Shown here: positions 1 to 22,713 of the stretch, in pieces
How positions within the stretch are numbered: the first letter of the stretch is position 1
Layout: each line of letters opens with the position of its first letter
Assembly (NCBI GenBank): GCA_965204575.1
Contig: OZ241993.1
Span: 901,850 to 965,849 of the forward strand
DNA: 64,000 bases
Direction of reading: 5' to 3'
Source: an uncultured candidatus Porisulfidus sp.
GTDB lineage: Bacteria; Pseudomonadota; Gammaproteobacteria; Poriferisulfidales; Poriferisulfidaceae
The notes under the pieces: model-generated
What the model was told of the DNA's origin: nothing
Seen by the model: only the letters and a program-made list of their open reading frames with translations
Database searches by the model: none
Program-made: the position numbers and the translations under genes

Positions 1-1
1 T

Positions 2-397
2 CTTGTTGAGCTCAAAGCAATTGATGTAAGAGAGATATGTAACAGTGTAGATCCTGAATGTTACTTGTTGCCTTGTAGATCAGGTGGGATGGATCAACTA
101 CAAAAGCCTGTATATTTCTTGGACGAGCGTCCCAAGCAACGCAAAAACTGGGTTTTAATAGGATGTGAAAGAAGTCTTCAATTTCATCGACACTATTATG
201 GAGATGAGCCACCCCAGGTTGAGATGTGTCCACGCAAGCTTCGACAAGAATCTGAAGTGCCTACACTATTGAAGTGTTGTCTACTTGAATTCGAGGTTGA
301 AAGAGATGGGGACCTGATGGTTGTTCCCTGGGGTGCTGATCTCACTATGGTAGAACAAGCTTTACGGGAAATTTCGAGTGAGGTTGAGTATGTCTAA
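2..397 (+). CDS. hypothetical protein, 5'-truncated by the window edge (C-terminal ~130 aa visible); first visible gene of the comA-like operon
   Basis: Frame 2 is open from nt 2 with no stop codon until 397. The track lists only the TTG-initiated tail 65..397. A 20-nt overlap with the next gene start suggests co-transcription. No motif recognised. Confidence 0.35.
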   Translation, partial: LVELKAIDVREICNSVDPECYLLPCRSGGMDQLQKPVYFLDERPKQRKNWVLIGCERSLQFHRHYYGDEPPQVEMCPRKLRQESEVPTLLKCCLLEFEVERDGDLMVVPWGADLTMVEQALREISSEVEYV

Positions 398-5126: not shown

Positions 5127-5140
5127 TATAGGGTCAACAA

Positions 5141-6586
5141 ATGACAGAAGTTAAAACTACAACTATTCCTGATTTGCAAACAAGTGCAATGTCGACGGAT
5201 AGCGATGAACGCGAAATTTTAAAATTGGTGGAGAATGCCAGATTTGCACAATTGCAAGTAAATTCCTATACGCAAGAACAAGTAGATGAATTAGTGACAT
5301 CAATTGCCTGGAGCGTTATCAAAAATAGAGAAGAATTGGCACGCATGGCTGTTGATGAGGGTGAGTTTGGAAATTACGCTGATAAAGTAACAAAGATTTA
5401 CAATCGCGTAATAGGAACATTGGCGGATATGCGTTCAGTCAAGACTGTTGGTGTAGTTGAAGAGGACCCTGAGACCGGAATAACAAAGCTCGCTAAACCC
5501 GTGGGTGTAATTGGTGCACTTATTCCGGCAACAGGTCCTGATGCAACGCCGCCCGTCAAGGCATTAGGCGCGATTAAAGCAAGAAACGCGTTGATCATAG
5601 CGCCACACCCAAGGACAAAAAGAAGTTCAGCTAGAGTAGTCGAATGCATACGAGAAGGTTGTACTCGCGTTGGTGCCCCTGAAGACCTGGCACAAGTGAT
5701 AACCAGCCCTTCAATTCAAAAGACAAAAGTGCTAATGGAAAATGTAGATCTCATCGTGGCAACGGGGGGCATGAGTATGGTGAAAGCCGCATACAGCTCA
5801 GGGAAACCTGCATATGGAGTAGGTGTAGGGAATGCGGTACATATAGTGGATGAAACCGCAGACCTCAACGATGCCGCTGATATGATTGCAAAGGCAAAGA
5901 CATTTGATTTTGCAACAAGCTGCTTGGCGGATAACGCCATAGTAGTTCATCAAGATATCTACAAAGTACTAGTAAACAAGTTGATAGAACTTGGTGGTTA
6001 TTTATGTAATAAAGCAGATAAAAATAGCCTTGAAAAAGTTATGTGGCCAAAAGATGCCCATATCCCATCTCCTGAAATCATCGCGAAATCTGCAGAGTCA
6101 ATTGCGAAGAAGGCACAAATTGATATTCAGCCTGGCAAAAGCTTTCTGTTAGTAGAAGAAACCGGAATTGGAGAAGGCCATCCGTTCTCTGGAGAAAAAC
6201 TGTCCGTTGTTTTAGCCGTCTATCAATATTCGGGTAAAATCGAAAATGCGGTAGATGTCGTAAATAGAATTACGAATTATCAGGGCTTGGGACATACATG
6301 CGGAATACATTCACAATCTGAAGCAAACATCAACTATGTTGCCCTAAATACAAAAACAGCAAGAGTCATCGTGAATCAAAATCTTAATGAAGGAGCAGGC
6401 AGCCCCAGAAACGGATTGCCCTATACATTGTCACTTTCCTGTGGGACATGGGGAGGGAACATCACAACCGAAAATGTCAATGTTAGAAACTTTATGAATG
6501 TGACCTGGGTTTCACGTCCAGTACGTCCTCGTGCGTTTAACGAAGAGGAGCTGTTTGAAAATTATTGGAACAAATATGGCAAGTAA
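5141..6586 (+). CDS. CoA-acylating aldehyde dehydrogenase (EutE/PduP/SucD-like ALDH)
   Basis: 481 aa. Related to acylating ALDHs (DLIVATGGMSMVKAAYSSGKPAYGVGVGN ... ADNAIVV). No typical NAD-ALDH Glu/Cys decapeptide. SD-like GGAG upstream. Confidence 0.65.
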   Translation: MTEVKTTTIPDLQTSAMSTDSDEREILKLVENARFAQLQVNSYTQEQVDELVTSIAWSVIKNREELARMAVDEGEFGNYADKVTKIYNRVIGTLADMRSVKTVGVVEEDPETGITKLAKPVGVIGALIPATGPDATPPVKALGAIKARNALIIAPHPRTKRSSARVVECIREGCTRVGAPEDLAQVITSPSIQKTKVLMENVDLIVATGGMSMVKAAYSSGKPAYGVGVGNAVHIVDETADLNDAADMIAKAKTFDFATSCLADNAIVVHQDIYKVLVNKLIELGGYLCNKADKNSLEKVMWPKDAHIPSPEIIAKSAESIAKKAQIDIQPGKSFLLVEETGIGEGHPFSGEKLSVVLAVYQYSGKIENAVDVVNRITNYQGLGHTCGIHSQSEANINYVALNTKTARVIVNQNLNEGAGSPRNGLPYTLSLSCGTWGGNITTENVNVRNFMNVTWVSRPVRPRAFNEEELFENYWNKYGK

Positions 6587-6621
6587 GAATCAGTTATTGA
6601 GATTTTCTCGGCTATACATGG

Positions 6622-8136
6622 GTGCATGACATGAAACATTATGAGTTAGGGACTGTAGAAGACCTAAAAAATTCTACCCGATTAAAACAAGAGGGTTTTG
6701 ATGAAAATTTTTTAAAAGGAAAACGCCCTTCACCGATCGAACCGGTACAAAATGTTATGGATTTGGCCGATGATATTAACAGCAAGAAATATGATGCCGT
6801 AATTGTTGGAAGTGGCCCGGGAGGATCAGCTGTTGCAAGAGAACTGGCAAGGGCAGGAAAAAAAGTAGTCGTACTGGAGTATGGGAAAGATCATCGAGGT
6901 AAATGGTATTACGGAACTGTCGCAGGACCTTTTCTCTACACCGAAAAACGTGGCTTTTTAAAATCTAAGGAAGGGGTAACAATTGTCCGCCCGATGCTTA
7001 CTGGGGGGGCAACCAACATGTTTGCAAGTGCTGCTTCAGGCCCTCCATCTTGGTGGTTTGATAAAACGGGTGTGGATATAGAGTCTGAAGTTAACGAAAC
7101 CATTGATGAGCTTCGGATTGAGGCGTTACCTGAAGAACTCACTGGCGCTGCATCACAACGTATTGGAGAAGCAGGCAGAGATCTAGGCATGGACTGGGTG
7201 CCCCAAACAAAATTCATTCATCCAAAGCGGTGTTACTCTGAATTAGATTGCGGTGATAAATGCATGTTTGGTTGTCGATGTGGAGGCAAGTGGACTGCAA
7301 ATGAATATTTGGATCAAGCTATTGAGGCCGGTGCGTCCGTTATTACCGAGTGTAACGTTCATAATGTTGAGATTGAAGATGGCGTAGCAACCGGGGTATA
7401 TGCTGAAGTACACGGGGAAAGATTCAGACTGAATGGCCAGGTCGTTATTGTTTGTGCTGGAGGAATTGGCACACCTAGAATTTTACAAAATTCAGGCATT
7501 CATAATGCTGGAGATGCACTGGGTGTAGACACTACATTTGTTGTATATGGTGTCATCAAAGAGAAAGGAAATACTGGTGATCCACCTATGACGATCAGCT
7601 ATTGTGACGATGAGAATGGTTTGATGTATTCGACACTCACTCAGCCATTTGGGCTATTTGCGCTTACTCAATATTACAAAGGTTGGAGGCATTTAAAGAA
7701 AGTGCCCAAGTTTCCGCGTATGCTAGGAATTATGGTTAAGATAAAAGAGGGCCTTAAAGGCTATGTGGCACCGGATGGACAGATCAGTATGCCTTTGTTG
7801 CATGATGATTTCCTCCGGGCAAACATTGGGTTCAGTACTAGCAAAAGTATTCTTATGAAAGCGGGATGTGATCCAAATACTATTTTTTGGAACCCCCCAA
7901 GAGGAACACATCCATGCGCAACAGTGCGTATAGGTGATCACTTGGATTCCGATCTAAAAACTCTTGCATTTGATAACTTATATGTCTCGGATGCGAGCAC
8001 TTTCCCATTACCCCTGGTACGTCCTCCGACACTTACAATTATTGGGCAAAGCAAGAGGTTGGCAAAGCATCTTATTGAAACCAAACTCAAAGACACTCAA
8101 ATTCAGAAAGAGGAAAATATGGCATTGGCACAATAG
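6622..8136 (+). CDS. GMC-family FAD-dependent oxidoreductase
   Basis: 504 aa. N-terminal FAD fold DAVIVGSGPGGSAVARELARAGKKVVVLEYG. Its length and C-terminal region fit GMC oxidoreductases. Confidence 0.7.
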   Translation: MHDMKHYELGTVEDLKNSTRLKQEGFDENFLKGKRPSPIEPVQNVMDLADDINSKKYDAVIVGSGPGGSAVARELARAGKKVVVLEYGKDHRGKWYYGTVAGPFLYTEKRGFLKSKEGVTIVRPMLTGGATNMFASAASGPPSWWFDKTGVDIESEVNETIDELRIEALPEELTGAASQRIGEAGRDLGMDWVPQTKFIHPKRCYSELDCGDKCMFGCRCGGKWTANEYLDQAIEAGASVITECNVHNVEIEDGVATGVYAEVHGERFRLNGQVVIVCAGGIGTPRILQNSGIHNAGDALGVDTTFVVYGVIKEKGNTGDPPMTISYCDDENGLMYSTLTQPFGLFALTQYYKGWRHLKKVPKFPRMLGIMVKIKEGLKGYVAPDGQISMPLLHDDFLRANIGFSTSKSILMKAGCDPNTIFWNPPRGTHPCATVRIGDHLDSDLKTLAFDNLYVSDASTFPLPLVRPPTLTIIGQSKRLAKHLIETKLKDTQIQKEENMALAQ

Positions 8137-8183
8137 AAAATGCATGCAATTTTTTGTGCATTAAATAATTTACAAAAAGAAAA

Positions 8184-8846
8184 TTGGAAGAACTAGAATT
8201 AATCAGCTTAAAACTATGTCCTTTTGTACAAAGGGCGGTGATAGTTTTAAATCACAAAAACATAAATTATAAAATCACTCATGTGGACTTGGAGAATCCA
8301 CCAGGCTGGTTTAATAAAATCTCACCATTAAAGAAAGTTCCGCTTCTAAAGATAGGTGAAAAAGATGTCCTGTTTGAATCAGCGGTTATCTGTGAATACA
8401 TAGATGATGTTACACCAATCAAGTTACGGCCAGAAAACCCGCTCCAATTGGCATACAATCGTGCATGGATTGAATTTGGATCTACATGCCTTGTAGATCA
8501 GTATTTGCTGCTTTTAAAAAAAACAGAGAAAGAGTTTAAAGAGCAAGCTGATCAAATCATCAGTAAACTACATTTAGTAGAGAATACTTTGAATAATCAG
8601 CCATTTTTTAATGGCGAACAATTCTCGCTTGTAGATGCCGCATATGCTCCATTACTGATACGATATGAAATCATAAATAATATTATTCCAATATTTAATT
8701 CTCAGAGCTTTGAAAAGCTTTCAAACTGGTCAGATACGATTCTTGGATCAAGCGCTGTACAAGAATCAATAGAATCAGATTTCCTCACCCAGTATAAAGA
8801 CAAAATTGCAGGTTTCGACGGATACTTGTCATCCCATATTAGCTAA
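8184..8846 (+). CDS. glutathione S-transferase-like protein (thioredoxin-fold N-domain)
   Basis: 220 aa. N-terminal GST-like fold LCPFVQRA ... KVPLL ... ESAVICEYI, followed by a helical C-domain. Confidence 0.55.
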   Translation: MEELELISLKLCPFVQRAVIVLNHKNINYKITHVDLENPPGWFNKISPLKKVPLLKIGEKDVLFESAVICEYIDDVTPIKLRPENPLQLAYNRAWIEFGSTCLVDQYLLLLKKTEKEFKEQADQIISKLHLVENTLNNQPFFNGEQFSLVDAAYAPLLIRYEIINNIIPIFNSQSFEKLSNWSDTILGSSAVQESIESDFLTQYKDKIAGFDGYLSSHIS

Positions 8847-8886
8847 AGATTAGCTAGAAAAACTCTACTCTAAAAAACTTTCTTTT

Positions 8887-10026
8887 GTGAATTTACTTGC
8901 ATCCAGATCTGCAGTTTGTGCTGCATTGATATTGGCCATAGGAATGGGTTTTGGACGTTTTTGTTTTACAGGCATTTTCCCTGTAATGGCTGATGAAGGA
9001 TCGTTGACACTAGATGGGGGCGCCTATGTGGCATCTGCAAACTACGCAGGATATTTGCTTGGTGCATTGTTAGCTATTAATACGCACCCTAATGACTCGT
9101 TTAAGCTGTGTCTTTATTCGATTTTAGGTACCGCATTGACAATTGCGTTTTTGGCTGTGTACCAGAGCGTGTGGTTTTTGATTGTCATGCGTGGCCTTTC
9201 AGGTGTATTCAGCGCCACTGCAATGGTTGGCGCCTCATCATGGTTATTGCAGTACAAAGGGGATCATCGTGCTTCGCCAATTTTATACGCAGGTATTGGG
9301 TTTGGAATTTTAATTTCGGCAGAAATCATCGCTATAGGTCAGCACTTTGGATTTGGTAGTGCGGAATTATGGTTCTTGCTAGGCGGAGCGGGTTTGCTAA
9401 TTGGGATACCTTGTATTTGGCTGATGAAAATGGATTCAGCGGGAAAGACCGTAGACCAAATCTATACAGGCATTCACAGTGCAGAAGTATTTGACAAGTG
9501 GAAACTAGTTTTAATTTATGGGTTAGCAGGGTTTGGTTATATCATTACCGCCACTTACCTTCCCTTGATAATCAAAAATGACTTGGGCATTGGAATCGGT
9601 ATCCACATATGGGCAGTGTTTGGATTAGGAGCGATGTTCTCATGTTTTTTTTGGCATGGGGTTCAAGCTAAACTGGGCTCAAGAAATTCGTTATTTGTTA
9701 ATTTAATTATCCAATCGATCGGTGTAGCGCTTCCAGTATTCAGTCAAACATTATCCAGTTATTTGTGCAGTGCACTCTTGGTTGGTGGCACATTTATGGG
9801 ATTTGTTACTATTGCTAAATCAATAGCACTGCAAATATCTCATGAAGCACGAGGTAACCTCATGGCAATCATGACTACTTCGTTTGGAATAGGCCAGATT
9901 GCGGGTCCGCTGGTTGCCAACGAGACCTATGATGTGAGCAAATCGTTTTCTTTGTCTTTTCTCATGGCAAGTATGGCGCTAATTATTGCAGCCGTAATCT
10001 CTTTAAAAGCTAACAGGAAAATTTGA
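8887..10026 (+). CDS. MFS-type membrane transporter (YbfB/YjiJ-like)
   Basis: 379 aa, about 12 predicted TM helices. Conserved N-terminal FGRFCFTGIFPVM segment typical of YbfB/YjiJ. GTG start as in the track. Confidence 0.55.
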   Translation: MNLLASRSAVCAALILAIGMGFGRFCFTGIFPVMADEGSLTLDGGAYVASANYAGYLLGALLAINTHPNDSFKLCLYSILGTALTIAFLAVYQSVWFLIVMRGLSGVFSATAMVGASSWLLQYKGDHRASPILYAGIGFGILISAEIIAIGQHFGFGSAELWFLLGGAGLLIGIPCIWLMKMDSAGKTVDQIYTGIHSAEVFDKWKLVLIYGLAGFGYIITATYLPLIIKNDLGIGIGIHIWAVFGLGAMFSCFFWHGVQAKLGSRNSLFVNLIIQSIGVALPVFSQTLSSYLCSALLVGGTFMGFVTIAKSIALQISHEARGNLMAIMTTSFGIGQIAGPLVANETYDVSKSFSLSFLMASMALIIAAVISLKANRKI

Positions 10027-10097
10027 TTAATCTGCATAGCGATAACCGACAAGCCTCTGGGTATGTACAGATCCTATGTGAAATTGGACAGTTCAAA

Positions 10098-10183
10098 TGG
10101 TGCCGATGGCCGGACTCGAACCGGCACGGCTTTCGCCACTGCCCCCTCAAGACAGCGTGTCTACCAGATTCCACCACATCGGC
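10098..10183 (-). tRNA. leuU: tRNA-Leu (anticodon GAG), class II, 86 nt including CCA
   Basis: Reverse complement is GCCGATGTGGTGGAATCTGGTAGACACGCTGTCTTGAGGGGGCAGTGGCGAAAGCCGTGCCGGTTCGAGTCCGGCCATCGGCACCA. 7-bp acceptor stem, anticodon loop TTGAGGG, long variable arm. Sits directly downstream of secG, as leuU does in E. coli. Coordinates ±1-2 nt. Confidence 0.85.
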
Positions 10184-10218
10184 ACTGCCTGCAGTATTAT
10201 CACAAAACGCGCCAAATC

Positions 10219-10587
10219 CTACTCAGGAATTTCTCCGGCTGGGCCCAATTCCGGTTCGAATTCCGAAATAACCGGCTGTTCCGGGATGCCGGGTTCGGGA
10301 AGGGCCTGCTCGGCTTCCGGTACGGCAATTTGCCCCATGAGGCTCTGTTCGGGTGGTGCGGTTTTGACGATCCACGCCAGCGCTAGGCAGTTGATGAAAA
10401 ACAGGGCAACGATGACGGCGGTGATCCGACTGAGAAAGGTTGCGCTTCCGCGTGCGCCGAAAACAGAACCGGAGGCGCCGCCGCCGAATGCTGCGCCGGT
10501 ATCCGCGCCCCGGCCGTGCTGCAGCAGCACCAGGCCGATGATGCTCAGCGACAGCAGGATCGCGGTGATGAGGAGGACGGTGTACAT
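10219..10587 (-). CDS. secG: preprotein translocase subunit SecG
   Basis: 122 aa. MYTVLLI ... LLQHGRGADTGAAFGGGASGSVFG is the SecG signature. Confidence 0.9.
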   Translation of the reverse strand: MYTVLLITAILLSLSIIGLVLLQHGRGADTGAAFGGGASGSVFGARGSATFLSRITAVIVALFFINCLALAWIVKTAPPEQSLMGQIAVPEAEQALPEPGIPEQPVISEFEPELGPAGEIPE

Positions 10588-10591
10588 CTGC

Positions 10592-11365
10592 CTATTTTCG
10601 CACGGCCTGGCAAATGGACAGGAATTCGTCGGCCTTCAGGGAAGCGCCGCCGACCAGGCCGCCGTCGATATCTGGCATGGAGAACAATTCCGACGCATTG
10701 GCTGCCTTGACGCTGCCGCCGTACAGCACGACCGTGTCCTGCGCAGCGGTTCCGAGCTTCTGCTCCAAGTGCGCCCGGATGGCGGCGTGCACTTCCTGCG
10801 CCATGTCTGGGGTGGCCGCGACTCCAGTGCCGATGGCCCAGACCGGCTCGTAGGCGATCAGCGCGCGCGGGAATGCGTCCGGGAAGCTTCGGACCGGCTG
10901 CAGTTGCCGGTGGATCACGTCCAGGGTCTGTCCCGCCTCGCGCTCCTCCAGGGTTTCTCCGACGCACAGGATCGCCCGGGGTGCGCCCGGGGTGTCTTGT
11001 TGCGCCGACTGGTGCAGGAGGGCGAACTTCTGCTCGATCAACTCGTCGGATTCGCCGTACACGTGACGGCGCTCGGAATGGCCGATGATGGCGTGCGAGC
11101 AGCCCAGTTCGGCCAGCATGGCCACGGAGACTTCGCCGGTGAAGGCGCCCTCGGGTTGGTCGCAGACGTTCTGCGCGCCGATCTGGACCGGGCTTTCCGT
11201 AGTCTCTTCCAGGACGTCAAGCAGGTGGACGAACGGAGGGCAGAGCAGGACTTCCGGAGCGGTCGCATCCCCGACCCCCTGTGCGACGGCACGGGCCAAC
11301 GCCCGGGCGGTGTCCCGGGAGCCATGCATTTTCCAGTTGCCGGCGACGACGGTCGGTCGAGCCAT
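10592..11365 (-). CDS. tpiA: triosephosphate isomerase
   Basis: 257 aa. N-terminal VAGNWKMHG and IGHSERR motifs. Confidence 0.9.
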   Translation of the reverse strand: MARPTVVAGNWKMHGSRDTARALARAVAQGVGDATAPEVLLCPPFVHLLDVLEETTESPVQIGAQNVCDQPEGAFTGEVSVAMLAELGCSHAIIGHSERRHVYGESDELIEQKFALLHQSAQQDTPGAPRAILCVGETLEEREAGQTLDVIHRQLQPVRSFPDAFPRALIAYEPVWAIGTGVAATPDMAQEVHAAIRAHLEQKLGTAAQDTVVLYGGSVKAANASELFSMPDIDGGLVGGASLKADEFLSICQAVRK

Positions 11366-11423
11366 GAAAGGGATCCGGTGGTTATCGGGGGGTAATGCGG
11401 TGGGGCATTATAAAGGGCGGTTC

Positions 11424-12755
11424 TCAGGCACCCGTGTCGATCGAGTTGGCGATAGATTGCGCGAGGGCTTCGACCCTTCCGTGATCTTCTCCCTCCACCA
11501 TGACACGCAACACCGGCTCTGTCCCGGAGGGGCGCAGGAGAACCCGACCTTGCTCGCCCAGTTCATTGCGCGCACTCTGCACGGCCGCATCCGTGGCCGG
11601 GCCGGGCGTACGGTCGCGTGGGCAACGCACATTGATCATGGTCTGTGGATACTTCCGCAGGTCCGAACGCGCCTGGCACAGGGGCTGGCCGAGAATATGC
11701 AGCGCTTCCAGTGTCTGTAGCGCCGCAACCATCGCGTCGCCGGTGCAGGCCCGGTCGCGGCAGATGATGTGGCCGGAGGTCTCTCCGCCGAGTTGCCAGT
11801 CGCGGGCCAGCAGTAATTCCTGGACATAGCGGTCGCCGACCGCAGCCCGCTCGAACGGGATTTCCAGGGCGGCCAGTGCTTTCTCCAGGCCCAGGTTGCT
11901 CATCTGGGTGCCGGCCACGCCGCCGTTCAGGGTGCCCTGAATCTGCCGGGCGCGGGCAATGACATACAAGAGATCGTCCCCGTCCGCGATTTCGCCGTCT
12001 TCGTCGATCATGATCAGCCGGTCGCCGTCGCCGTCCACGGCTAGCCCGAGAGTGGCACGGTGTTCACGGGTTTGGGCGCGGACATATTCCGGGCAGGTCG
12101 CACCACAACCATCGTTGATGTTCGTCCCGTCAGGCTCCACGCCGACGGTAGCCACGTCTGCGCCTAGTTCCTCGAACAGTTTCGACGCAAGCTGGTAAGC
12201 GGCTCCGTGCGCGCAGTCGACCAGCAGGCACAAGCCGTCGAGGCGGAACCCCTCGGGCACGGTGCCCTTGCAGAAATCAAGGTAGCGGCGCCCGGCGTCA
12301 TTGATTCGGCGGGCCTTGCCGGGCAGCGACCGGGGGTCGATGTCCATCGGCTGCTCAAGTTCCGCTTCGATGCGATGCTCGATCTCATCGGGCAGTTTGG
12401 CGCCGTCCGCGTCGAACAGCTTGATGCCGTTGTCGTAGTGCGGGTTGTGCGAGGCGCTGATGACGATGCCGGCGCAGGCATCCAGTTCCCGGGTCAGTTG
12501 GGCGATGGCGGGAGTCGGCTGGGGGCCCAGCAGCAGGACATTGACGCCGGCCGCGGATAAACCGGCCTCCAGCGCAGACTCGAACATGTAGCCGGAACGG
12601 CGGGTGTCCTTGCCGATCAGGATCTGGGGGAATTCGGACTCGCGCCCGAGTACGCGCCCGATGGCCCAGCCCAGGCGCAGCACGAAGTCCGGCGTCATCG
12701 GGCTGACTCCAACCCGGCCCCGGATTCCGTCAGTTCCGAAATAGGTGCGGGACAT
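11424..12755 (-). CDS. glmM: phosphoglucosamine mutase
   Basis: 443 aa. YFGTDGIRG start and the phosphoserine loop SASHNP. Confidence 0.9.
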   Translation of the reverse strand: MSRTYFGTDGIRGRVGVSPMTPDFVLRLGWAIGRVLGRESEFPQILIGKDTRRSGYMFESALEAGLSAAGVNVLLLGPQPTPAIAQLTRELDACAGIVISASHNPHYDNGIKLFDADGAKLPDEIEHRIEAELEQPMDIDPRSLPGKARRINDAGRRYLDFCKGTVPEGFRLDGLCLLVDCAHGAAYQLASKLFEELGADVATVGVEPDGTNINDGCGATCPEYVRAQTREHRATLGLAVDGDGDRLIMIDEDGEIADGDDLLYVIARARQIQGTLNGGVAGTQMSNLGLEKALAALEIPFERAAVGDRYVQELLLARDWQLGGETSGHIICRDRACTGDAMVAALQTLEALHILGQPLCQARSDLRKYPQTMINVRCPRDRTPGPATDAAVQSARNELGEQGRVLLRPSGTEPVLRVMVEGEDHGRVEALAQSIANSIDTGA

Positions 12756-12777
12756 GCGCGGTCGGCCGCGACTGGAA

Positions 12778-14703
<1,926 letters not shown>

Positions 14704-14952
14704 GCGCGCTTTTCCCGGAAACCTTGGCCTTTCAGCATACTAGGATAGCAGATGGCGCGGGGACCGCGGGCGCATTCTGCTCCTGTAACGAGATATGGGG
14801 GAGCAGGCGGGGATTTCCAAGCCAAGACTAGGAGCGTTGCTCTCGAATGAGGTGCAACGACGATACGTGTCATTTCTAGCAACTGAAACATTATTTTCGG
14901 TACTTAACCAGTTTTGTGCATGTAATGAAAGTAAACGGAACATAGTTTGGTA

Positions 14953-15672
14953 TTACTGGGGCAGTGGTGGGGAAAAGAGATTTGAAACCGTAAAATCAGC
15001 GATCAAGTATGTCGATGCTGCAAAGATAACAAAAAGTGCCCATGCTGACACGACTGCTAGCCGGTAAAGGTTTCTAAAGATACTTTCTCCTGTTGTACCA
15101 TGTGTGAATCTATGCGCTAATCGAATCAGGAAATCAGATGCTAGGAGACTAGAAATGCCATTTGACACTGTATAGAAAAGAGGGCCAAGTGTTCCTATGG
15201 CAATTAATGTACCTAGGATGAAATAAGCTGTAGCTTGCCAAGACAAGATAATAGCGTTTTCGTTTGTCCAGAAAAGAACTCCCCCGGCACCAAGCCAGAC
15301 AAACATAACGAAGCCACCAACAAACTCTTTCCTTTTATCATCGGATTTATGGCGAATCCCATGAAGGACTTTTTGAAATTCGATAGATTGATTCTTATGG
15401 ATAGCCTCAATAACACTCAATGTCTCTTCTGCCTGTTTGTTGCTAGCTTCAATCAGAGTTTCAGAAATATTATGGAAGTGGGTCTCATGAATCGCGTCTA
15501 TAGATCTGATTGCTCTGATTTGCAACATTATTATTTCGGTTTGCTTGCCACTACTTTTGTGGAGATTTTCCATAAAGTCTTCAAGGACCTTATGAAATTG
15601 ATTTTCCTGAAACGTGTTAAGAGATCGAATCGTTTCTTCGATTGAGAGTTGCTCGTTCTCGTTTTTAGTCAT
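14953..15672 (-). CDS. hypothetical membrane protein with N-terminal helical repeats and 3-4 C-terminal TM helices
   Basis: 239 aa. Recurring motif about every 35 aa (NQFHKVLEDFMENLHK / ETHFHNISETLIEASNK / IEFQKVLHGIRHK). Hydrophobic C-terminal segments. AT-rich codon usage. No homology recognised. Confidence 0.45.
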   Translation of the reverse strand: MTKNENEQLSIEETIRSLNTFQENQFHKVLEDFMENLHKSSGKQTEIIMLQIRAIRSIDAIHETHFHNISETLIEASNKQAEETLSVIEAIHKNQSIEFQKVLHGIRHKSDDKRKEFVGGFVMFVWLGAGGVLFWTNENAIILSWQATAYFILGTLIAIGTLGPLFYTVSNGISSLLASDFLIRLAHRFTHGTTGESIFRNLYRLAVVSAWALFVIFAASTYLIADFTVSNLFSPPLPQ

Positions 15673-16513
15673 TAGTTTTTTTGGGCTTTTAGGCGCGTGT
15701 GCAGGTTACGGCGCAGAATTGGGCTAATTATGAAGCCCGTTATTCTAACGTTTGCGATTCTGATCGGTGTGCTTTGGGTATCCCGGTAGGGCGCGTGACC
15801 GAGATTTGCGCAGACTAACTATGGCTACCCTCCCTCTACAAAATTATCCCGGACTGGGACTGGGAGGATCGCACCCTATTCCATATTCCATGGCGACAAC
15901 CCGAAATTCCTGCGGGCGATTAACAGCAATTCTGATCGCCACCGGCCCGCCTTTCAAGAAAGGCAAAGATTTTCACGCCACGCCGACTAACCTGACATCC
16001 GACTCCAAGTTTCAGAATCAGTGGTTACGCTTAATGGTGGCGGGGTAGATAAGCAAGTTGTCCAGGTTCTTGGCAGGTCTGCGTGGATAATATCTATTCT
16101 GCAAATGTCTTTCGTGCATACTGCGCCTTGGTCTTTGCCACTTATAGTGAAAATTCACTAACCATTTCCTCTTGAAAATGACTCTTTGGGAAACTTTTCT
16201 ATGGTGGTTTATCTTGCCAGTTGGATGGCTGACGATAGCAGTGTTCCATTTGTCTGGCCAACGCTCTTTTTTGAAAATGCGTACATTGCATATTGGGCTT
16301 GGTCGATTTGGCTTACGATTGCTCTTGGAGATTTCACATCCGCCTTCCTTATCCGCCTTCCTTATGTATACTTATACCCACAATATGAAGGAAGGGGAAA
16401 ATCTATTATTGGGTGACAGCAGCAGTTTATTTCTGACGGCAGTCGGTGCAATAATGGAAGAACTGGCAATTCAGAAAATAAAGCTCACATTTAGTTTGAA
16501 AGGGTTGTTGCTG

Positions 16514-16789
16514 ATGAATAACCATATCAGAATAGTTGCGCTCTACCTGTTGGTTCTTGCTGGCCATCCTGCCTTTGCGGATGATGCTGAAGAAAAGAGA
16601 GATGCGTTCTATGAGAGACTTTCATATGACAGGCAGGCGATGTGCCATTTGATGGCAAAGGAGATACATTGGAGGTACTCGACTCCTAACGCGAAAAGTC
16701 TTTTGGTCTATGACAAATTAGCTCCGGCATTCTGCAAATGGTGCAAGGACTTGGACAAGGATCACTATCGGGCGGTCTGCCCAAAATAA
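16514..16789 (+). CDS. small secreted cysteine-containing protein (signal peptide MNNHIRIVALYLLVLAGHPAFA)
   Basis: 91 aa from an internal ATG of the 205-aa track ORF. Signal peptide followed by a charged domain with four Cys (CHLM ... CKWCKD ... VCPK). Confidence 0.3.
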   Translation: MNNHIRIVALYLLVLAGHPAFADDAEEKRDAFYERLSYDRQAMCHLMAKEIHWRYSTPNAKSLLVYDKLAPAFCKWCKDLDKDHYRAVCPK

Positions 16790-17356
16790 CGGCCAAATTT
16801 CGGTTGTAGTAGACTGAAAAGATGAAAATCATGCTTAATGGCTATTTCTGGTCCCATAAGAAGGCCGGGGAGAATGAAGGGGCATGGTCGTGTGACGAAT
16901 TGCCTCGTATATCAATAGTGAGTTACAAGGAGGGAAATAGTTTCAATCTTTATATTGATGGAACGATTTTTCTGGGGTGTTTTAGTGCCTTGAGTGGGGC
17001 AACAGCAGAAGCGGTGAATATCAACAATAATTTGAGTGGACAATTTGCCGAATAGGTGCTGGCTGCCCGCAATACCCAAGCATCAGCGAAATCCGTTATC
17101 CAGCGAAGCGATATTGTGCAAAGTCTCAATAGCACGTCTGGTTTGCTCTTATCATCCTCCGATGATTAATGCTTGGATGTTAGGGCCGTTTCTCTTCATA
17201 GAGGAGCCTCTTATCATTACCATTCCCGCGACAGTTTTCAGCATCATCGGTTCCACCTCCGGTGCGCTCGTAGTGATGCGCAGTCTTAGGGTCGGCGACT
17301 TATCCGGGAGGCTTTGATATTTGTGCGACTGCCGGGGCGCATCAATGGTTCGGATG

Positions 17357-18082
17357 ATGAAGTCGCACACCCTGTTCGTCTCCGACCTGCATCTGGACGC
17401 CAGTCGTCCGGCCCAGATGCAGGAATTCGTGCGTTTTCTGAAGAACGAGGCCCATCAGGCGCAGGCTCTGTACATCCTGGGCGACCTGTTCGAGTTCTGG
17501 ATCGGCGACGATGATCCCGCCGAAGGGCTGGACGAGGTGATCGATGCGCTTCAGGGGCTGACTGCGCAGGGTGTTTCCGTGAAATTCCTGCACGGCAACC
17601 GGGATTTCCTCTTGGGGGCCGATTTTGCCCGCCGGACCGGGATCGAGATCCTTCCGGCCCGTCAGGTGGTCGACCTGCATGGCATCCCCACCTTGATCGA
17701 ACATGGTGACCTGCTGTGCACGGATGACGTGGCCTACCAGCGCTACCGCCGGCGCATCCGCCATCCGGTCACGATGGCGCTGCTCGGAAACCTGCCCCGC
17801 TCATGGAGGCTGAGAATGGGTCAGCGCCTGCGCCGGATCAGCACCCAGGCGATCGCGGGGAAATCCCCGGACATCATGGACGTAAACGAGGAGGCGGTCC
17901 GCCAGGTGATGCGCTCGGAAGGGGTATACACGATGGTGCATGGGCATACGCACCGCCCGGCCATTCACGAATTCAAGGTGGACGAAGTGGAGGCCGTGCG
18001 GGCCGTGCTTGGGGACTGGTACGAACAGGGCAGCTGGCTGGTGGCCGATGCCGACGGCCTGCACCCGCAGTCGGCAACTTGA
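17357..18082 (+). CDS. lpxH: UDP-2,3-diacylglucosamine diphosphatase LpxH
   Basis: MKSHTLFVSDLHL ... LYILGDLFEFWIGDDDP ... HGNRDFLLG ... TDD ... HGHTHRP aligns with E. coli LpxH over its whole length. Start chosen at the ATG matching the E. coli N-terminus; the track ORF begins at TTG 17321. Confidence 0.85.
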   Translation: MKSHTLFVSDLHLDASRPAQMQEFVRFLKNEAHQAQALYILGDLFEFWIGDDDPAEGLDEVIDALQGLTAQGVSVKFLHGNRDFLLGADFARRTGIEILPARQVVDLHGIPTLIEHGDLLCTDDVAYQRYRRRIRHPVTMALLGNLPRSWRLRMGQRLRRISTQAIAGKSPDIMDVNEEAVRQVMRSEGVYTMVHGHTHRPAIHEFKVDEVEAVRAVLGDWYEQGSWLVADADGLHPQSAT

Positions 18083-18101
18083 ATGGACGGGTTCGGCCGG
18101 G

Positions 18102-19337
18102 TCAGGTCACGGCACCTTTGAGCGCCAGCACCACGTCCATGACGTTGGTGCCGGTCGGCCCGGTGGTGACCAGCGCGTTTACGGCATCCAGATAGCTTCC
18201 GGCATCGGCGCGCGCCAATGCCTGTTCGGCATCCAGCCCTGATTCCTGACCGTGCAGCACGGTCCCGCCGTCAACTTCTCCACCGGCATCTTCGGTCGGA
18301 CCGTCCGTGCCGTCCGTGCCGCAGGCGAGCAGCCGGATACCCCTGATGCCTTCCAGCGCTGTGGCTGCCGCCAGGGCAAGGTGCTGATTGCGTCCGCCCC
18401 GCCCCGGGTTCTCGGGTAGCCGGACGGTGGTTTCGCCGCCCCAGATGTGCACGCCTGGAGGCGTGTCCATCTGCTTTAAGTACTCCCCCAGCGCCATTCC
18501 CGTCTTCCCGGCTTCATCTTCCAGGAATTCCGGATGCCGGTGCACCGGGAATCCAAGTTCTTCCGCCCGGCATGCTGCCGCTTCCTTGGCGTCTTCCAGC
18601 GTGGCGATGATGTGAGTCTGCAGGTGCTGGAAGGCTTCGGGCGGCGGAACCGGCATGCGCTCGGCCTTCTCGATCAGCTGGCGAGTCCCGGCGGACAGGG
18701 TCTCGGGCAGGACTTCATCGCGTACTGCGGTCAGCGGGCCGGACCCGATCACGGCCGGGTCGTCCCCGGGCACGTCCGAAATCATCAACGCACAGGCGGG
18801 GCGTCCATCGAGATAGTGCGCGAGTCGCCCGCCCTTGATGCAGGAGATGGAACGACGCACGGCGTTCATCTCGGTGATGGCCAGCCCCTCGGCCAGCAGC
18901 CGCTCGGTCAGTTCGCTCAGTCCTTGCAGGTCTAGGTTGGGCGCCAACACCTCGATCAGGCTGGAGGCGCCGCCTGAAATCAGCGCAAGGAAGCGGGCAT
19001 CGGCGGGGGCTTCGCCCAGGAACTCCACCAGTCGCTGGCCGGCCCGGAGGCTGGCTTCTCCCGGCACCGGGTGGTCGGACTCGACGCATTCGACCTGTGA
19101 AAAGCCGCCCAGTTCGTCGTCCAGGTGTCCGTGCTTGGTGATCACCAGCCCGCGCCGGGGTGCCGGCCGTGCGCGCAGTGCACCGAGAGCCATCGCCGAC
19201 GCCGCCTTTCCGAACGCGATCACGTAGTCGTACTCGACTTCCGGATGGCGATCCAGCCATTGGGCCACGGCTTCCGTGCCGCGCACCCGGGCCAGGGAGG
19301 CTTCCAGAATGTCCTGAAGCAGTGAATCAGCGCTCAT
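18102..19337 (-). CDS. glycerate 2-kinase (MOFRL/DUF4147 family, GckA/TtuD-like)
   Basis: 411 aa. The N-terminal and C-terminal MOFRL-type domains are collinear with TtuD/GckA; GTDGTDGPT motif. Confidence 0.8.
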   Translation of the reverse strand: MSADSLLQDILEASLARVRGTEAVAQWLDRHPEVEYDYVIAFGKAASAMALGALRARPAPRRGLVITKHGHLDDELGGFSQVECVESDHPVPGEASLRAGQRLVEFLGEAPADARFLALISGGASSLIEVLAPNLDLQGLSELTERLLAEGLAITEMNAVRRSISCIKGGRLAHYLDGRPACALMISDVPGDDPAVIGSGPLTAVRDEVLPETLSAGTRQLIEKAERMPVPPPEAFQHLQTHIIATLEDAKEAAACRAEELGFPVHRHPEFLEDEAGKTGMALGEYLKQMDTPPGVHIWGGETTVRLPENPGRGGRNQHLALAAATALEGIRGIRLLACGTDGTDGPTEDAGGEVDGGTVLHGQESGLDAEQALARADAGSYLDAVNALVTTGPTGTNVMDVVLALKGAVT

Positions 19338-19906
19338 GGCAGGATCAGCACCAGCGTGTCGACGGACACCCGGTCGAACAATTCAATCACATCGGCGCCG
19401 CGCATGCGGATGCAGCCGATCGAGGCGGCCTGGCCGATCAGCCCTTCTTCGTGGGTTCCGTGGATGTAGATGTAGCGTTGGTAGGAGTCCACGTCGCCGT
19501 CCTTGTTGACGCCGGGTTCGAGCCCGTCCAGCCACAGGATGCGCGTCGTGATGCATTCGCGGCCGGTGGTCCGCGGTTCCGTCTCGATCTCGGCCGCTTC
19601 CGACTGGGCGACCCGGCCCTTGAAGACCGTATGCAAGGCGGCATCGTTGCCGATGCATTCCGCAATCCGGTGCGCACCGGTCGGGGTCTTCATGCTGTCG
19701 TCCTGCCCGCCGATGCCGTAGCGGGAGGTCGAGACGGGCCAGGAACGGAGCACTTGATCCTCCTCGAGCAGGTGCAGGGCCTGTTCACGGATGCTGACCA
19801 GGCACATCGGGCGGGACTGGCATTGCGGGAAGCGTTGGCGCGCCTCCGCCGCCCGTGCCAGGTCTTCGGCCGCGGGATCGGCCACAGGAGGCAGGGCAGG
19901 GCACAT
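19334..19906 (-). CDS. L,D-transpeptidase (YkuD/ErfK domain)
   Basis: 190 aa. Catalytic-domain motif IHGTHEEGLIGQAASIGCIRM (His ... Cys). Confidence 0.75.
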   Translation of the reverse strand: MCPALPPVADPAAEDLARAAEARQRFPQCQSRPMCLVSIREQALHLLEEDQVLRSWPVSTSRYGIGGQDDSMKTPTGAHRIAECIGNDAALHTVFKGRVAQSEAAEIETEPRTTGRECITTRILWLDGLEPGVNKDGDVDSYQRYIYIHGTHEEGLIGQAASIGCIRMRGADVIELFDRVSVDTLVLILP

Positions 19907-19909
19907 GGC

Positions 19910-21406
19910 CTAGGCTGCCCGATTTTGAGGGCTGGGGTCTCGGGTGTCGGTCCCGGAACGCCGGCGCAAGGCCAGTTCGTCCAGGTAGCCGTCCGGTACG
20001 CCGGTCACGTAATCCCCGGTAAACACGGAGCAGTCGAAATTCTGGAGTTCGGGATTTCCGTCCTGGACCGCGGCGATCAGGTCCGGCAGGTCCTGGTAGA
20101 TCAGGCGGTCGGCGCCGATGGCCTCGCACACTTCGGGAATATCGCGCCCGTGCGCGATCAGCTCCTCGGCGCTCGGCATGTCGATGCCGTAGACGTTGGG
20201 GTAGCGGATCGGCGGCGAGGCGGAGCAGAAATAGACCTTTTTGGCCCCGGCGTCCCGCGCCATCTGCACGATTTCGCGCGATGTGGTGCCACGCACGATC
20301 GAATCGTCGACCAGCAGGACGTTGGTGCCTTCGTATTCGTTGCGGATCGGGTTGAGCTTGCGCCGCACGGACTGACGGCGGACCTGCGCCTCGGGCATGA
20401 TGAAGGTCCGGCCGATGTAGCGGTTCTTGATGAAGCCCTCGCGGTAGGGGCGGTTCAGCCGGTAGGCCATCTCCAGCGCCGCGGTGCGGCTGGTGTCGGG
20501 GATCGGGATGACCACGTCGATGTCGTGATCGGGCCACTCCCGCAGGATCTTGTTCGCCAGGCGCTTGCCCATGCGCATCCGCGAGCGTTGCACGGAAACC
20601 CCGTTCATCACCGAATCCGGCCGGGCGAAGTAGACGTACTCGAAGATGCAGGGCGCATAGGTTTCCCGGCTTCCGCAGATTTCGCTGTGCACCGTGCCGT
20701 CCAGGCCGATGAACAGGGCCTCGCCGGGCGCGAGGTCGCGCTCCAGGGTGAAGCCCAGCATGTCCAGCGCGACGCTCTCGGAAGCGACGATATGTTCCGG
20801 TCCCCCGCCGGTGTCCCGGGTGCCGTACACCAGCGGGCGGATGCCATAGGGGTCGCGAAACGCCAGGACCCCCCAGTCGGCGACCAGGCACACCGCCGCG
20901 TACGCGCCGATGCAGCGACGGTTGACCCCCCGAACGGCCTGGAACAGTTCCTTCGGGTCGCGTGCGGTCGATTCGGGCCGGGCCAGCAGTTCGTGCGCGA
21001 GGACGTTGAGCAGGATCTCGGAGTCGGATTCCGTGTTGATGTGGCGCCGGTCTTCGCGGAACAGTTCCTGCCGCAGCGCTTCGGTGTTCACCAGGTTGCC
21101 GTTGTGCCCCAGCGCGATGCCGTAGGGAGAGTTGACGTAAAGCGGCTGCGCTTCTTCGGACTTTTCCGTCCCGGCGGTGGGGTAGCGCAGATGGCCGATG
21201 CCGGCTTCGCCGCGCAGGCGCAGCAGCCTCTTGCCGCGGAACACGTCGCGGACCAGGCCGTTGCCCCGCAGTTGATGCAGCCGCCCCTCGCGGTCGTAGG
21301 TGGTCAGCCCCGCGGCGTCCTGGCCCCGGTGCTGCAGCACGTTCAACCCTTCATGCAGGTCCTGTGCGACGGGTCGATGGCTGACAATGCCGATCAATCC
21401 ACACAT
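19910..21406 (-). CDS. purF: amidophosphoribosyltransferase
   Basis: Start set at MCGLIGIV (Ntn Cys1). The track ORF 19910..21526 is an upstream frame extension. PRPP-binding and Fe-S Cys motifs present. Confidence 0.9.
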   Translation of the reverse strand: MCGLIGIVSHRPVAQDLHEGLNVLQHRGQDAAGLTTYDREGRLHQLRGNGLVRDVFRGKRLLRLRGEAGIGHLRYPTAGTEKSEEAQPLYVNSPYGIALGHNGNLVNTEALRQELFREDRRHINTESDSEILLNVLAHELLARPESTARDPKELFQAVRGVNRRCIGAYAAVCLVADWGVLAFRDPYGIRPLVYGTRDTGGGPEHIVASESVALDMLGFTLERDLAPGEALFIGLDGTVHSEICGSRETYAPCIFEYVYFARPDSVMNGVSVQRSRMRMGKRLANKILREWPDHDIDVVIPIPDTSRTAALEMAYRLNRPYREGFIKNRYIGRTFIMPEAQVRRQSVRRKLNPIRNEYEGTNVLLVDDSIVRGTTSREIVQMARDAGAKKVYFCSASPPIRYPNVYGIDMPSAEELIAHGRDIPEVCEAIGADRLIYQDLPDLIAAVQDGNPELQNFDCSVFTGDYVTGVPDGYLDELALRRRSGTDTRDPSPQNRAA

Positions 21407-21411
21407 GGCGG

Positions 21412-22029
21412 CTACTCGGGCAGTGCCTCCGAGAGGGTCTCGGAGACCGTTTCGGAGACCGTTTCGGCCAGCGTCTCGGTAGAACCCGGGTAGTGGAACA
21501 GGTCCTGCCAGTCCTCGGGCATCCACTCGACAACCTGCTGGGCAGCCTCGACAAAGTAGGGGATCAGCGTTGACTCTTGCCAGAACCCTGCTTCGGGAAT
21601 CGCGGTGGTACCGGCGATCAGCACCAGCACCAGCACCAGCAGGCCGCCGCGCAGCAGCCCGAACAGGAACCCCATGACCCGGTCGCTGCGCTGCAGGACG
21701 CCGCTGCCCTTGTCCTTGGCCATCTGGGCGAACAGTCGGTGCAGTTGCGACACCACGACGAAGGTGAGGAGGAACAATACGATCCCGGCGACCGGCGCGT
21801 GAAACTCGGTGAGGCCATAGGTGCGCTCGCCCAAGGTGACCTCGTCGAATATCTCGGGTACGAACTGCGCACCGAACTCGGCGAACTGGAAGGCCACGAC
21901 GAGCCCCACCACCCAGGCCAGGATGGTGACCAGTTCCTCGGCGAAACCGCGCAGCCAGCTCAGGATGCCGGAGATCAGGATGATCAATGCGATCATCACG
22001 TCAACCAGGGTGGCGCCGAGAATGGTCAT
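21412..22029 (-). CDS. cvpA: colicin V production protein CvpA
   Basis: 205 aa, four TM helices. Conserved cvpA-purF arrangement. C-terminal (SETV/L)n repeat tail. Confidence 0.85.
   Translation of the reverse strand: MTILGATLVDVMIALIILISGILSWLRGFAEELVTILAWVVGLVVAFQFAEFGAQFVPEIFDEVTLGERTYGLTEFHAPVAGIVLFLLTFVVVSQLHRLFAQMAKDKGSGVLQRSDRVMGFLFGLLRGGLLVLVLVLIAGTTAIPEAGFWQESTLIPYFVEAAQQVVEWMPEDWQDLFHYPGSTETLAETVSETVSETLSEALPE
21431..21478 (-). repeat. four degenerate 12-nt tandem repeats (gagaccgtttcg-like) encoding the (A/S)ETVSETVSETLSEA tail of CvpA
   Basis: Direct reading of 21431-21478 gives gagagggtctcg / gagaccgtttcg / gagaccgtttcg / gccagcgtctcg. Confidence 0.6.
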
Positions 22030-22514
22030 GGCTGCCGGACGACCCAGCCCTGGTGCACTTCGGTAAGGTTTTTCTTGGCCTTGATGCCTTTCAGCACGTG
22101 TTCAGCTTCCTGCTGGCTGGGATAGGGGCCGACCCAGATTCGCTGGTGGGTCTTGCCGTCGGGCGCGTCCTTCTCGAACAGGTTGGTGCGGTAGCCCGCC
22201 TCGCGCATGGCGTCGCGGATCTCGGTGGCCTTAGCGGCGTTCTGGAATCGGCCGACCTGGATAAACCACTTGTCCTTCGGCGCCAGAGCGGCAGCTTCTC
22301 CGGCATCCGGGCCGGGCATGGCCCGGGTCTCCGGCGCATTCATGTCGGCGGGGAACGTTTGGTGGGTGAAGACCAGTTCCTTCGGCGCGGCGACATCCTG
22401 CAGCGGCCGGACCAAGTCGGGACGCTGCGTGTCAAGCAGCATCGGGATCACTAGAACCCCAATGAGAATGAGCAAAACGGCGCCGAGGAGCCGTTGTTTG
22501 AGTGCGAGTTCCAA
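22026..22514 (-). CDS. dedD: SPOR-domain cell-division protein (DedD-like)
   Basis: 162 aa. N-terminal TM helix, C-terminal SPOR-like region WFIQVGRFQNAAKATEIRDAMREAGY ... VGPY. ATGA overlap with cvpA. Synteny folC-dedD-cvpA-purF. Confidence 0.7.
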   Translation of the reverse strand: MELALKQRLLGAVLLILIGVLVIPMLLDTQRPDLVRPLQDVAAPKELVFTHQTFPADMNAPETRAMPGPDAGEAAALAPKDKWFIQVGRFQNAAKATEIRDAMREAGYRTNLFEKDAPDGKTHQRIWVGPYPSQQEAEHVLKGIKAKKNLTEVHQGWVVRQP

Positions 22515-22713
22515 CGCCAGAAGTCGGGAGCTGTCGCGGGGAGGACATTATAGCCTTTTAGCAGGGTTTTTGCCGGTTCTTGGGTTGTTTACAAAGATGC
22601 TTTGCATCTAAGTACTGCGCTGATGGTGTGCTCTTTAGAGCCAAGGCAGACAAGAATTGTAGTTATGTTAATGTAGTTACATAAATGACACGAGTCGTCA
22701 AGGCCCGAAAAGC

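Follow-up and report, generated by a model that had tools for sequence, protein, structure and literature searches.

What fills the interval between ftsH and lpxH in the 64,000-nucleotide (nt) stretch of Candidatus Porisulfidus DNA studied here, and does the DNA found there serve the cell? In this stretch, which at its full length is called the window (all coordinates are window positions unless a locus such as L001 or L002 is named), the two genes are separated by an AT-rich islet of 2,530 bp. The explanation that we favor, with a probability of roughly 0.5, is that the islet is foreign, that it carries a partly decayed three-part envelope module (genes A, B and C), that it overwrote the promoter region of lpxH, and that the module would protect the cell envelope. 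The figure of 0.5 is a compromise between a well-supported anatomy and a weakly supported function, and the components of this explanation are therefore graded separately below.

A foreign islet between ftsH and lpxH

The LpxH protein of the window shares 95% of its residues with its counterpart in the Candidatus Porisulfidus sp. TsSOB metagenome-assembled genome (L007), 88% with that of a 1.59-Mb Candidatus Porisulfidus chromosome (L005), and 65% with that of a third species (L006). On the strength of these identities, the host is a small-genome, sulfur-oxidising gammaproteobacterium that lives in association with sponges. The metagenomic scaffold L001 encodes an FtsH identical to that of the window, and its DNA is 99.4% identical over window positions 2778-14823. 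In L001, L005, L006 and L007, lpxH lies directly upstream of ftsH in divergent orientation, at a distance of 60-180 bp and without the islet. Therefore, the adjacency of ftsH and lpxH is ancestral in the genus, and rlmE and yhbY were not displaced from this site, contrary to the initial annotation, which had described the islet as replacing the usual rlmE/yhbY neighbourhood. The same annotation correctly recorded that rlmE is missing upstream of ftsH and that folP is missing between ftsH and glmM. In the four relatives as well, glmM directly follows ftsH with no folP between them, and tblastn searches of the 64-kb window with the Escherichia coli RlmE, YhbY and FolP sequences returned no match, which is a weak negative. 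The islet and its native borders are as follows.

14826..17355, no strand: AT-rich foreign islet between ftsH and lpxH, 2,530 bp, GC content 0.44, delimited by the GC profile and by the junctions with empty-site relatives.
12778..14703, minus strand: ftsH, native left flank, with FtsH_ext, AAA and Peptidase_M41 domains, protein identical in L001; glmM and tpiA follow.
14704..14825, minus strand: native upstream region of ftsH, which differs from L001 by only one mismatch (14817) and is also conserved in L005, L007 and L002.
17357..18082, plus strand: lpxH, native right flank, with a Metallophos domain; its 5′ region is replaced by islet DNA.

The GC content is 0.443 across 14824-17355, compared with 0.640 in the left flank and 0.657 in the right flank, and homology to the empty sites of L001, L005 and L007 ends at 14823-14825 and restarts at 17355-17357. 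At the left junction, native homology on the ftsH side runs to position 14825, where the letters ...GATTTCCAAGCCAA give way to GACTAGG; the right junction is the lpxH start codon (17355/17357). The AT-rich block noticed at first between the two genes is thus borne out by its composition, but the limits then given to it, 14704-17320, require correction: positions 14704-14825 are native and common to the relatives, the foreign part is 14826-17355, and the ATG of lpxH stands at 17357. That the islet is foreign and specific to certain strains was also proposed at that stage, and a comparison of the ftsH-lpxH interval across the genus, which addresses whether the same content is conserved there, agrees with the proposal. 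The site is empty in four of the five Candidatus Porisulfidus relatives, including L001, which encodes the identical FtsH and matches the window at 99.4% of nt on the ftsH side. We regard it as almost certain that the islet is foreign, strain-variable DNA that was acquired horizontally by the Candidatus Porisulfidus chromosome.

The fifth relative, L002, represents the same chromosomal locus (flanks with 91-93% DNA identity) and carries an AT-rich islet (GC 0.41-0.46) between lpxH and ftsH. The left junctions of the two islets are at most about 12 bp apart, and the right junction of both is the lpxH ATG; the right-hand parts of the two islets cannot be aligned.

Insertion of an element directed by an integrase, an insertion sequence or a tRNA gene was considered and set aside: no islet open reading frame (ORF) matches an integrase or transposase family in Pfam, ARAGORN finds no tRNA at the insertion site, and no terminal or flanking repeats exceed chance expectation. 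The nt identity to L001 falls from 99.4% to the left of the islet (2778-14823) to 96.6%, 95.8% and 91.0% to its right (17356-22528), and the identity to L007 changes in the reverse direction, from 87% on the left to 92.6% on the right. This mosaic pattern points to entry by homologous recombination between strains, and the shift in identity from left to right indicates that the islet coincides with a recombination breakpoint. On the evidence of these alignments, the most likely route of arrival is homologous recombination between strains and not a site-specific element.

The junctions bear directly on the expression of the two flanking genes. Upstream of ftsH, 122 bp of native DNA have been retained, and the ftsH promoter is probably still located in 14704-14825. 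On the other side, comparison with the relatives places the lpxH start at the ATG at 17357 (MKSHTLF...) and not at the TTG at 17321. Approximately 60 bp adjoining lpxH have been lost, and at the empty sites this segment holds a ribosome-binding region and a promoter-like TTCCAC-N17-TATAAT site, the latter absent in the window. No terminator-like site is present between B and lpxH or between A and ftsH. Because the 5′ region of lpxH was overwritten, the gene would now be expressed from islet sequence or by read-through, with ftsH probably keeping its own promoter. The initial annotation held that the ftsH promoter must lie in the foreign DNA, and this has the situation the wrong way round, since it is lpxH that lost its 5′ region. 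Whatever the function of the module, the locus offers a clean natural case in which an essential gene of lipid A synthesis lost its promoter region to an accessory cassette, so that its expression became tied to foreign DNA. Exact look-ups of the 253-amino-acid (aa) lpxH ORF that begins at the TTG, and of the DUF4147/MOFRL protein encoded beyond lpxH, returned no match.

Three genes of a probable envelope module

The cargo of the islet consists of two intact genes and one damaged gene.

14953..15672, minus strand: gene A, intact, a 239-aa inner-membrane protein with a three-helix repeat domain and a conserved domain of three transmembrane (TM) helices.
16042..16464, plus strand: pseudogene of C, a polytopic membrane protein, with 80% nt identity to an intact fusion gene in L088 and six lesions.
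16514..16789, plus strand: gene B, intact, whose 91-aa product is the precursor of a small, helical exported protein and has four invariant cysteines as well as a signal peptide.

A, B and C occur together in the window, in L002, and in L088 (to which L089 is identical), and their order and orientation differ among these loci. The L002 islet encodes A′ (218 aa), B′ (93 aa) and C′ (a 144-aa membrane protein), all intact, and B′ is inverted relative to the order in the window. In L088, from an unrelated metagenomic genome, the module lies inside an AT-rich island between dapB and carA (2460-9300), and C and B are fused in a 252-aa product in which an acidic linker joins an N-terminal polytopic C domain to a B domain that ends in ...FCKWCKDLDKDEYRAVCPK. 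The fusion gene is directly upstream of the gene for P0007, with which it overlaps by 4 nt; P0007 (A″, 148 aa) is the short protein nearest to A over all three TM helices. The three co-occurrences in differing order, the gene fusion and the translational coupling together argue that A, B and C work together, and we consider it probable that they constitute one functional module. As such, A/B/C is a previously undescribed three-part envelope module, not the single-gene system envisaged in the initial annotation, in which the third gene, C (the pseudogene at approximately 16042-16464), had been overlooked. The module is rare, with three instances in collections derived from ~15 billion predicted proteins.

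Residues 1-117 of A form an antiparallel three-helix bundle made of three repeats of ~35 aa (R1 versus R2, z = 7.0; R1 versus R3, z = 4.2; R2 versus R3, not significant), and TM helices follow at ~118-136, 145-178 and 195-232. The AlphaFold2 (AF2) model of 14953..15672, a prediction that had been suggested when the ORF was first described, has a mean predicted local distance difference test score (pLDDT) of 86 and a predicted template modelling score (pTM) of 0.67. Its helices span 2-39, 44-75, 78-136 (the last extending into TM1), 145-178 (TM2), a short segment at 180-189, and 195-232 (TM3), and the three N-terminal helices match the three repeats. The description of A as a 239-aa protein with repeats and a membrane domain holds for the ORF and for the three repeats, but AF2 and hydropathy both give three TM helices, not four. 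The charge distribution suggests that the N-terminal domain is cytoplasmic.

The sole full-length homologue of A is P0001, the A′ protein of L002 (38-39% identity, E values of 1e-52 and 1.6e-40). It was recovered by exhaustive phmmer searching, which alone gave relatives; the exact look-up and the word-indexed homologue search with A returned nothing. The 3-TM domain of A is common to ~45 small metagenomic proteins, almost all of which are singletons, and phmmer comparison of A with 24 small 3-TM members yields E values from 1e-11 to 1e-3. In this family, W126, G154 and G163 are invariant, and G130, S144, W145, A158 and Y167 are found in at least 90% of the members. When A is scored for family membership by the alignment of TM1-TM3 and by the W, SW and G residues, it belongs to the family; the A1 profile gives the A ORF an E value of 7e-38, which is partly circular because A is one of the 22 A1 sequences, whereas the single-sequence phmmer values support membership independently. 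The spacing of small residues in TM2 suggests helix packing or oligomerisation. Searches of Pfam, PADLOC, PHROGs and NCBIfam place no islet ORF in a curated family, as had been noted from the sequence; the further statement that the proteins resemble no known families is accurate for curated families, but the proteins are not unique, given the rare homologues described here. A itself also has no match in the PDB or BFVD, and the 3-TM family (A and 21 relatives) has none in Pfam, PHROGs or NCBIfam. In PDB sequence searches, neither the profiles of the A family and of B nor the C-B fusion found a match. According to hhalign, A and C are unrelated and are not paralogues. The possibility that A is a holin or another phage lysis protein was rejected, because A and its 21 relatives have no Pfam or PHROG match and no islet contains a lysin gene. 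The small 3-TM family proteins end right after TM3.

For the B product, the prediction of a 91-aa secreted protein with four cysteines is upheld: the ORF begins with a signal-peptide-like N-terminus with a conserved AxA-type site (AFA/DD), consistent with export, and C44, C74, C77 and C89 are invariant in all four known homologues. Its relatives are B′ of L002 (62% identity), P0049 of L085 (55%), and the C-terminal domain of the L088 fusion. AF2 models B, at modest confidence (pLDDT 70), as a helical hairpin. B is in frame with the tail of the C pseudogene; nevertheless, it starts with an ATG of its own and shares its signal peptide with B′, which is free-standing in L002. A CCHC zinc knuckle (C74-x2-C77-x6-H84-x4-C89) was considered and dismissed, since H84 is replaced by Glu in the L088 fusion and the four cysteines alone are invariant. 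At L085, a lower-GC (~0.47-0.52) islet at an unrelated locus (600-2220) contains a free-standing 108-aa B homologue together with other small TM ORFs, and its flanks are what we take to be a PPK2-like gene fragment (assigned by our own reading and not by a tool) and trmB-thiG-thiS. Scans of JGI metagenomes and IMG/VR with the B and A profiles gave no confirmed relative.

The identity of C in the window to the intact L088 fusion gene extends over 16053-16394, and the reading frame is broken along its length. The start codon has changed from ATG to ATA (16049-16051), 1-bp deletions are found at ~16078/9 and ~16244/5, a nonsense substitution has converted CAA to TAA (16159-16161), a 1-bp insertion is found at ~16175, and a 13-bp tandem duplication occupies 16338-16363, which was also picked up independently in a repeat search. 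The tblastn match over this region alternates between frames +1 and +2, and the alignment with C′ of L002 (29% identity) spans the stop codon. A nonsense substitution and a 13-bp duplication are untypical of sequencing errors. From these lesions we conclude with high confidence that the window copy of C is a pseudogene. In the L088 fusion, the C domain has no Pfam match and contains no cysteine at all. As C is fused there to a B domain that bears a CxxC motif, a membrane oxidoreductase of the DsbB/VKOR type with B as its partner was weighed; such a protein is recognised by conserved cysteine pairs, and the cysteine-free C domain rules out a redox relay of this type.

Defence context and possible function of the module

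The second flank of lpxH is variable as well. In the window, the junction between lpxH and the DUF4147-MOFRL gene (18082/18102) comprises 19 bp and is empty. At the same junction, L001 (4712-8954) carries a type II restriction-modification system (a D12 methyltransferase and a SacI-like endonuclease), a 63-aa ORF, and a Thoeris system (ThsA-Macro, E 1.5e-42; ThsB-TIR, E 1.1e-72), and L002 (2420-4327) carries AbiL (AbiLi, E 4.3e-90; AbiLii, E 6.8e-27). Within the genus, this junction is a hotspot for defence systems, and the region around the islet carries such systems in sister strains. With variable sites on both of its sides, the lpxH region as a whole is a variable hotspot in Candidatus Porisulfidus, and marking it as such is useful for the population genomics of these symbionts.

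The L088 island also contains a TraG/TrwB/HerA-like ATPase, an NB-ARC STAND NTPase and an HTH_3 gene, and the module is located directly downstream of the STAND gene. The STAND protein (886 aa) scores 44 bits in Pfam against a cutoff of 23.5, has a 335-aa N-terminal region without an assigned domain, and has no match in PADLOC or the PDB. Furthermore, some of the small 3-TM relatives of A are found in mobile-element regions of the integrase/AlpA/SNase type, and others are found in uninformative contexts. In the comparison with L002, the divergence of the A, B and C alleles is extreme relative to the flanks.

Our tentative proposal, namely that the module acts in envelope-level defence or exclusion, draws on the hotspot setting, on the STAND gene beside the module in L088, on the mobile-element regions that hold distant relatives, and on the extreme allelic divergence. 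In such a scheme, A would contribute a cytoplasmic bundle and a 3-TM domain rich in small-residue packing motifs, and A, C and B would assemble into an inner-membrane complex with a periplasm-facing part. The complex might shield the envelope against incoming genetic elements or toxins through phage superinfection exclusion, abortive infection or entry exclusion, and the islet would behave as a further variable cassette in the defence-rich, recombination-prone lpxH region. A more specific version of the proposal, which we hold to be somewhat more doubtful, is that of a new enzyme-free envelope system directed against phages and mobile elements, in which a periplasm-exposed, disulfide-bonded B, free or attached to C, would be coupled to A as a 3-TM oligomerising effector, with diverged alleles at the lpxH hotspot and sometimes with an NB-ARC STAND NTPase.

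A number of observations weigh against these proposals. The loss of C means that the module may be non-functional in this genome. The islet of L085 contains B without A or C, which shows that B can occur alone, and no recognised defence genes surround it; likewise, no recognisable defence genes stand beside the small 3-TM relative in L003. With only three instances of the module, the association statistics are weak. Neither an enzymatic domain nor a domain for sensing nucleic acids is found in A, B or C, and no component matches PADLOC, PHROG or Pfam models. In PADLOC-DB v2, where at least one protein with a significant score to a system HMM (hidden Markov model) was the standard applied, the best matches of A are PDC-M04B (E 0.0067) and CARF_HEPN (E 0.026), and none are obtained for B, the 77-aa and 93-aa ORFs of the islet, or the ORFs at 16186-16416 and 15767-16048. 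C′ and B′ also have none, and A′, A″, the C-B fusion and B″ have differing weak matches or none. Because these weak matches are inconsistent among homologues, and because the homologues do not reproduce the PDC-M04B match of A, we ascribe them to chance. A blastn comparison of the islet with plasmids and phages gave no match, so that a mobile-element origin is not demonstrated, and tblastn searches of 50,697 phage and 72,556 plasmid records with A, the C-B fusion and a small 3-TM member were negative as well.

The most serious competitor, although we consider it improbable on balance, is that the islet is a decaying remnant without present function, the leftover of a larger AT-rich island such as that of L088, which would be eroding in the reduced (~1.6 Mb) genome of a symbiont, with A and B simply not yet inactivated. 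The six independent lesions in C speak for this explanation, and it fits the unsupported state of the spacer and of the 77-aa and 93-aa ORFs described below, the fact that the closest relative, L001, does without the islet, and the chromosome of only 1.59 Mb in a relative. Against this, the ORFs of A (720 bp) and B (276 bp) are undamaged and their conserved residues preserved, none of the three genes is disrupted in L002, where they occupy the same site, and the islet now supplies the 5′ region of lpxH, from which it follows that it cannot be freely lost. A role in immunity to, or production of, a membrane-targeting bacteriocin is less probable again. A and/or C would be immunity proteins with 3-4 TM helices, or B would be a secreted, disulfide-bonded antimicrobial or signal peptide with A and C providing self-protection. 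The small relatives of A, at 100-125 aa with three TM helices, have the size and topology of the immunity proteins of pore-forming colicins; B has its signal peptide and four invariant cysteines; the alleles are strongly divergent, as specificity determinants would be; and sponge microbiomes are dense, competitive communities. However, no Pfam colicin-immunity or bacteriocin match was found, and no island contains a toxin, export/processing or lysis gene. Identification of A as the immunity protein of a pore-forming colicin was rejected in particular, since the 22 family members have no Pfam match at E≤0.1 and no toxin gene occurs in any context. Moreover, B is anchored to the membrane in L088 through its fusion to C, a poor fit with a diffusible toxin.

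Position alone might suggest that A acts in the membrane on the FtsH protease or on the lipid A pathway (lpxH), as a partner or a regulator: A in the window, like A′ in L002, is located directly upstream of ftsH and on its strand, and no terminator-like site separates A from ftsH. This modulator role is the least credible of the alternatives and, in our view, highly improbable. The L088 module, between dapB and carA, is nowhere near ftsH or lpxH, which weakens the idea directly; four relatives live without the module altogether; a foreign composition and extreme divergence are ill-suited to the partner of a highly conserved protease; and A has no Pfam similarity to HflK/C or YccA-type families.

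The reading of the islet as a foreign, partly decayed envelope module with a possible protective role is the one that we retain from this weighing. The locus deserves a place in a defence-discovery screen, but it does not amount to a demonstrated new system. If the module proves to work in exclusion or defence, it would add to the known systems one composed of small membrane and secreted proteins only, and its source would be uncultivated sponge symbionts, which are known to invest heavily in defence. If the module is merely decaying cargo, the locus is an ordinary genomic islet.

Remaining islet sequence and neighbouring acquired DNA

Three further segments of the islet were examined.

15673..16041, no strand: spacer between A and the C pseudogene, GC ~0.52, GC-richer than the remaining islet.
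16822..17055, plus strand: 77-aa ORF with no family match and no counterpart in the L002, L085 and L088 islets; coding unsupported.
17036..17317, plus strand: 93-aa ORF with a GTG start, no significant family match and no counterpart elsewhere; coding unsupported.

The spacer contains no supported ORF, has no Rfam match, gives no significant RNA fold on either strand, and has no similarity to the other loci compared here. A single promoter-like site on its minus strand (15957-15929) does not rise above chance. The 77-aa ORF listed in the initial annotation exists as an ORF, but nothing supports its status as a gene. No RNA gene was found in the islet with Rfam, at the gathering threshold and at E≤5, or with ARAGORN.

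A separate low-GC block lies at the left end of the window. Positions 1-10080 form a block of at least 10 kb with an islet-like GC content (0.35-0.47) that abuts a tRNA-Leu(GAG) gene at 10098-10183 on the minus strand. This block is common to L001 at 99.4% identity and, according to the L001 annotation, encodes two Lyase_1 proteins, a PALP protein, an aldehyde dehydrogenase, a GMC oxidoreductase and an MFS transporter; it has the appearance of a second, larger acquired island beside a tRNA gene. A 37-bp copy of window positions 10084-10120 (97% identical) is present at 269-304 of L005, 2.9 kb from tRNA-Leu, in the manner of an att-like direct repeat. This repeat suggests that an element may have integrated at tRNA-Leu in that relative.

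Comparison with known systems

Among the known groups that come closest is the uncharacterised family of small 3-TM metagenomic proteins (100-160 aa), which is not in Pfam and has the consensus KQKExxGxFAxxVWLGSGxYLF...FLSWQA..YF..G.FVAA..FG..Y. The C-terminal domain of A is a clear member of this family. A differs from the small proteins in its additional N-terminal three-helix repeat domain of 117 aa, which is otherwise found only in A′, and in its link to B and C, which is limited to the A subfamily; neither B nor C is found near the members in L003, L004, L086 and L087.

Compared with the cassettes of defence islands and hotspots, the islet lacks any match to known or candidate defence models and encodes no effector or sensor domain, be it a nuclease, an NTPase, a TIR domain or another. 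However, it shares with such cassettes its presence or absence among near-identical strains, its foreign composition, its borders at core genes, the different cargo or alleles found at the same site, and its position adjoining a defence site.

Phage superinfection-exclusion and conjugative entry-exclusion systems, such as T4 Imm/Sp, P22 SieA, F TraS/TraT and SXT Eex, consist of small inner-membrane proteins and small exported or anchored proteins without enzymatic domains, are encoded on accessory DNA, and are highly diverse in sequence. A, B and C differ from these exclusion proteins in having no sequence or fold similarity to them (PHROGs, BFVD and PDB), no phage or plasmid match, and no intact phage or conjugative element. 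Nevertheless, A/B/C is likewise a set of small membrane and exported proteins, its distant 3-TM relatives are found in integrase/AlpA/SNase regions, and in L088 a TraG/TrwB-like ATPase is encoded nearby.

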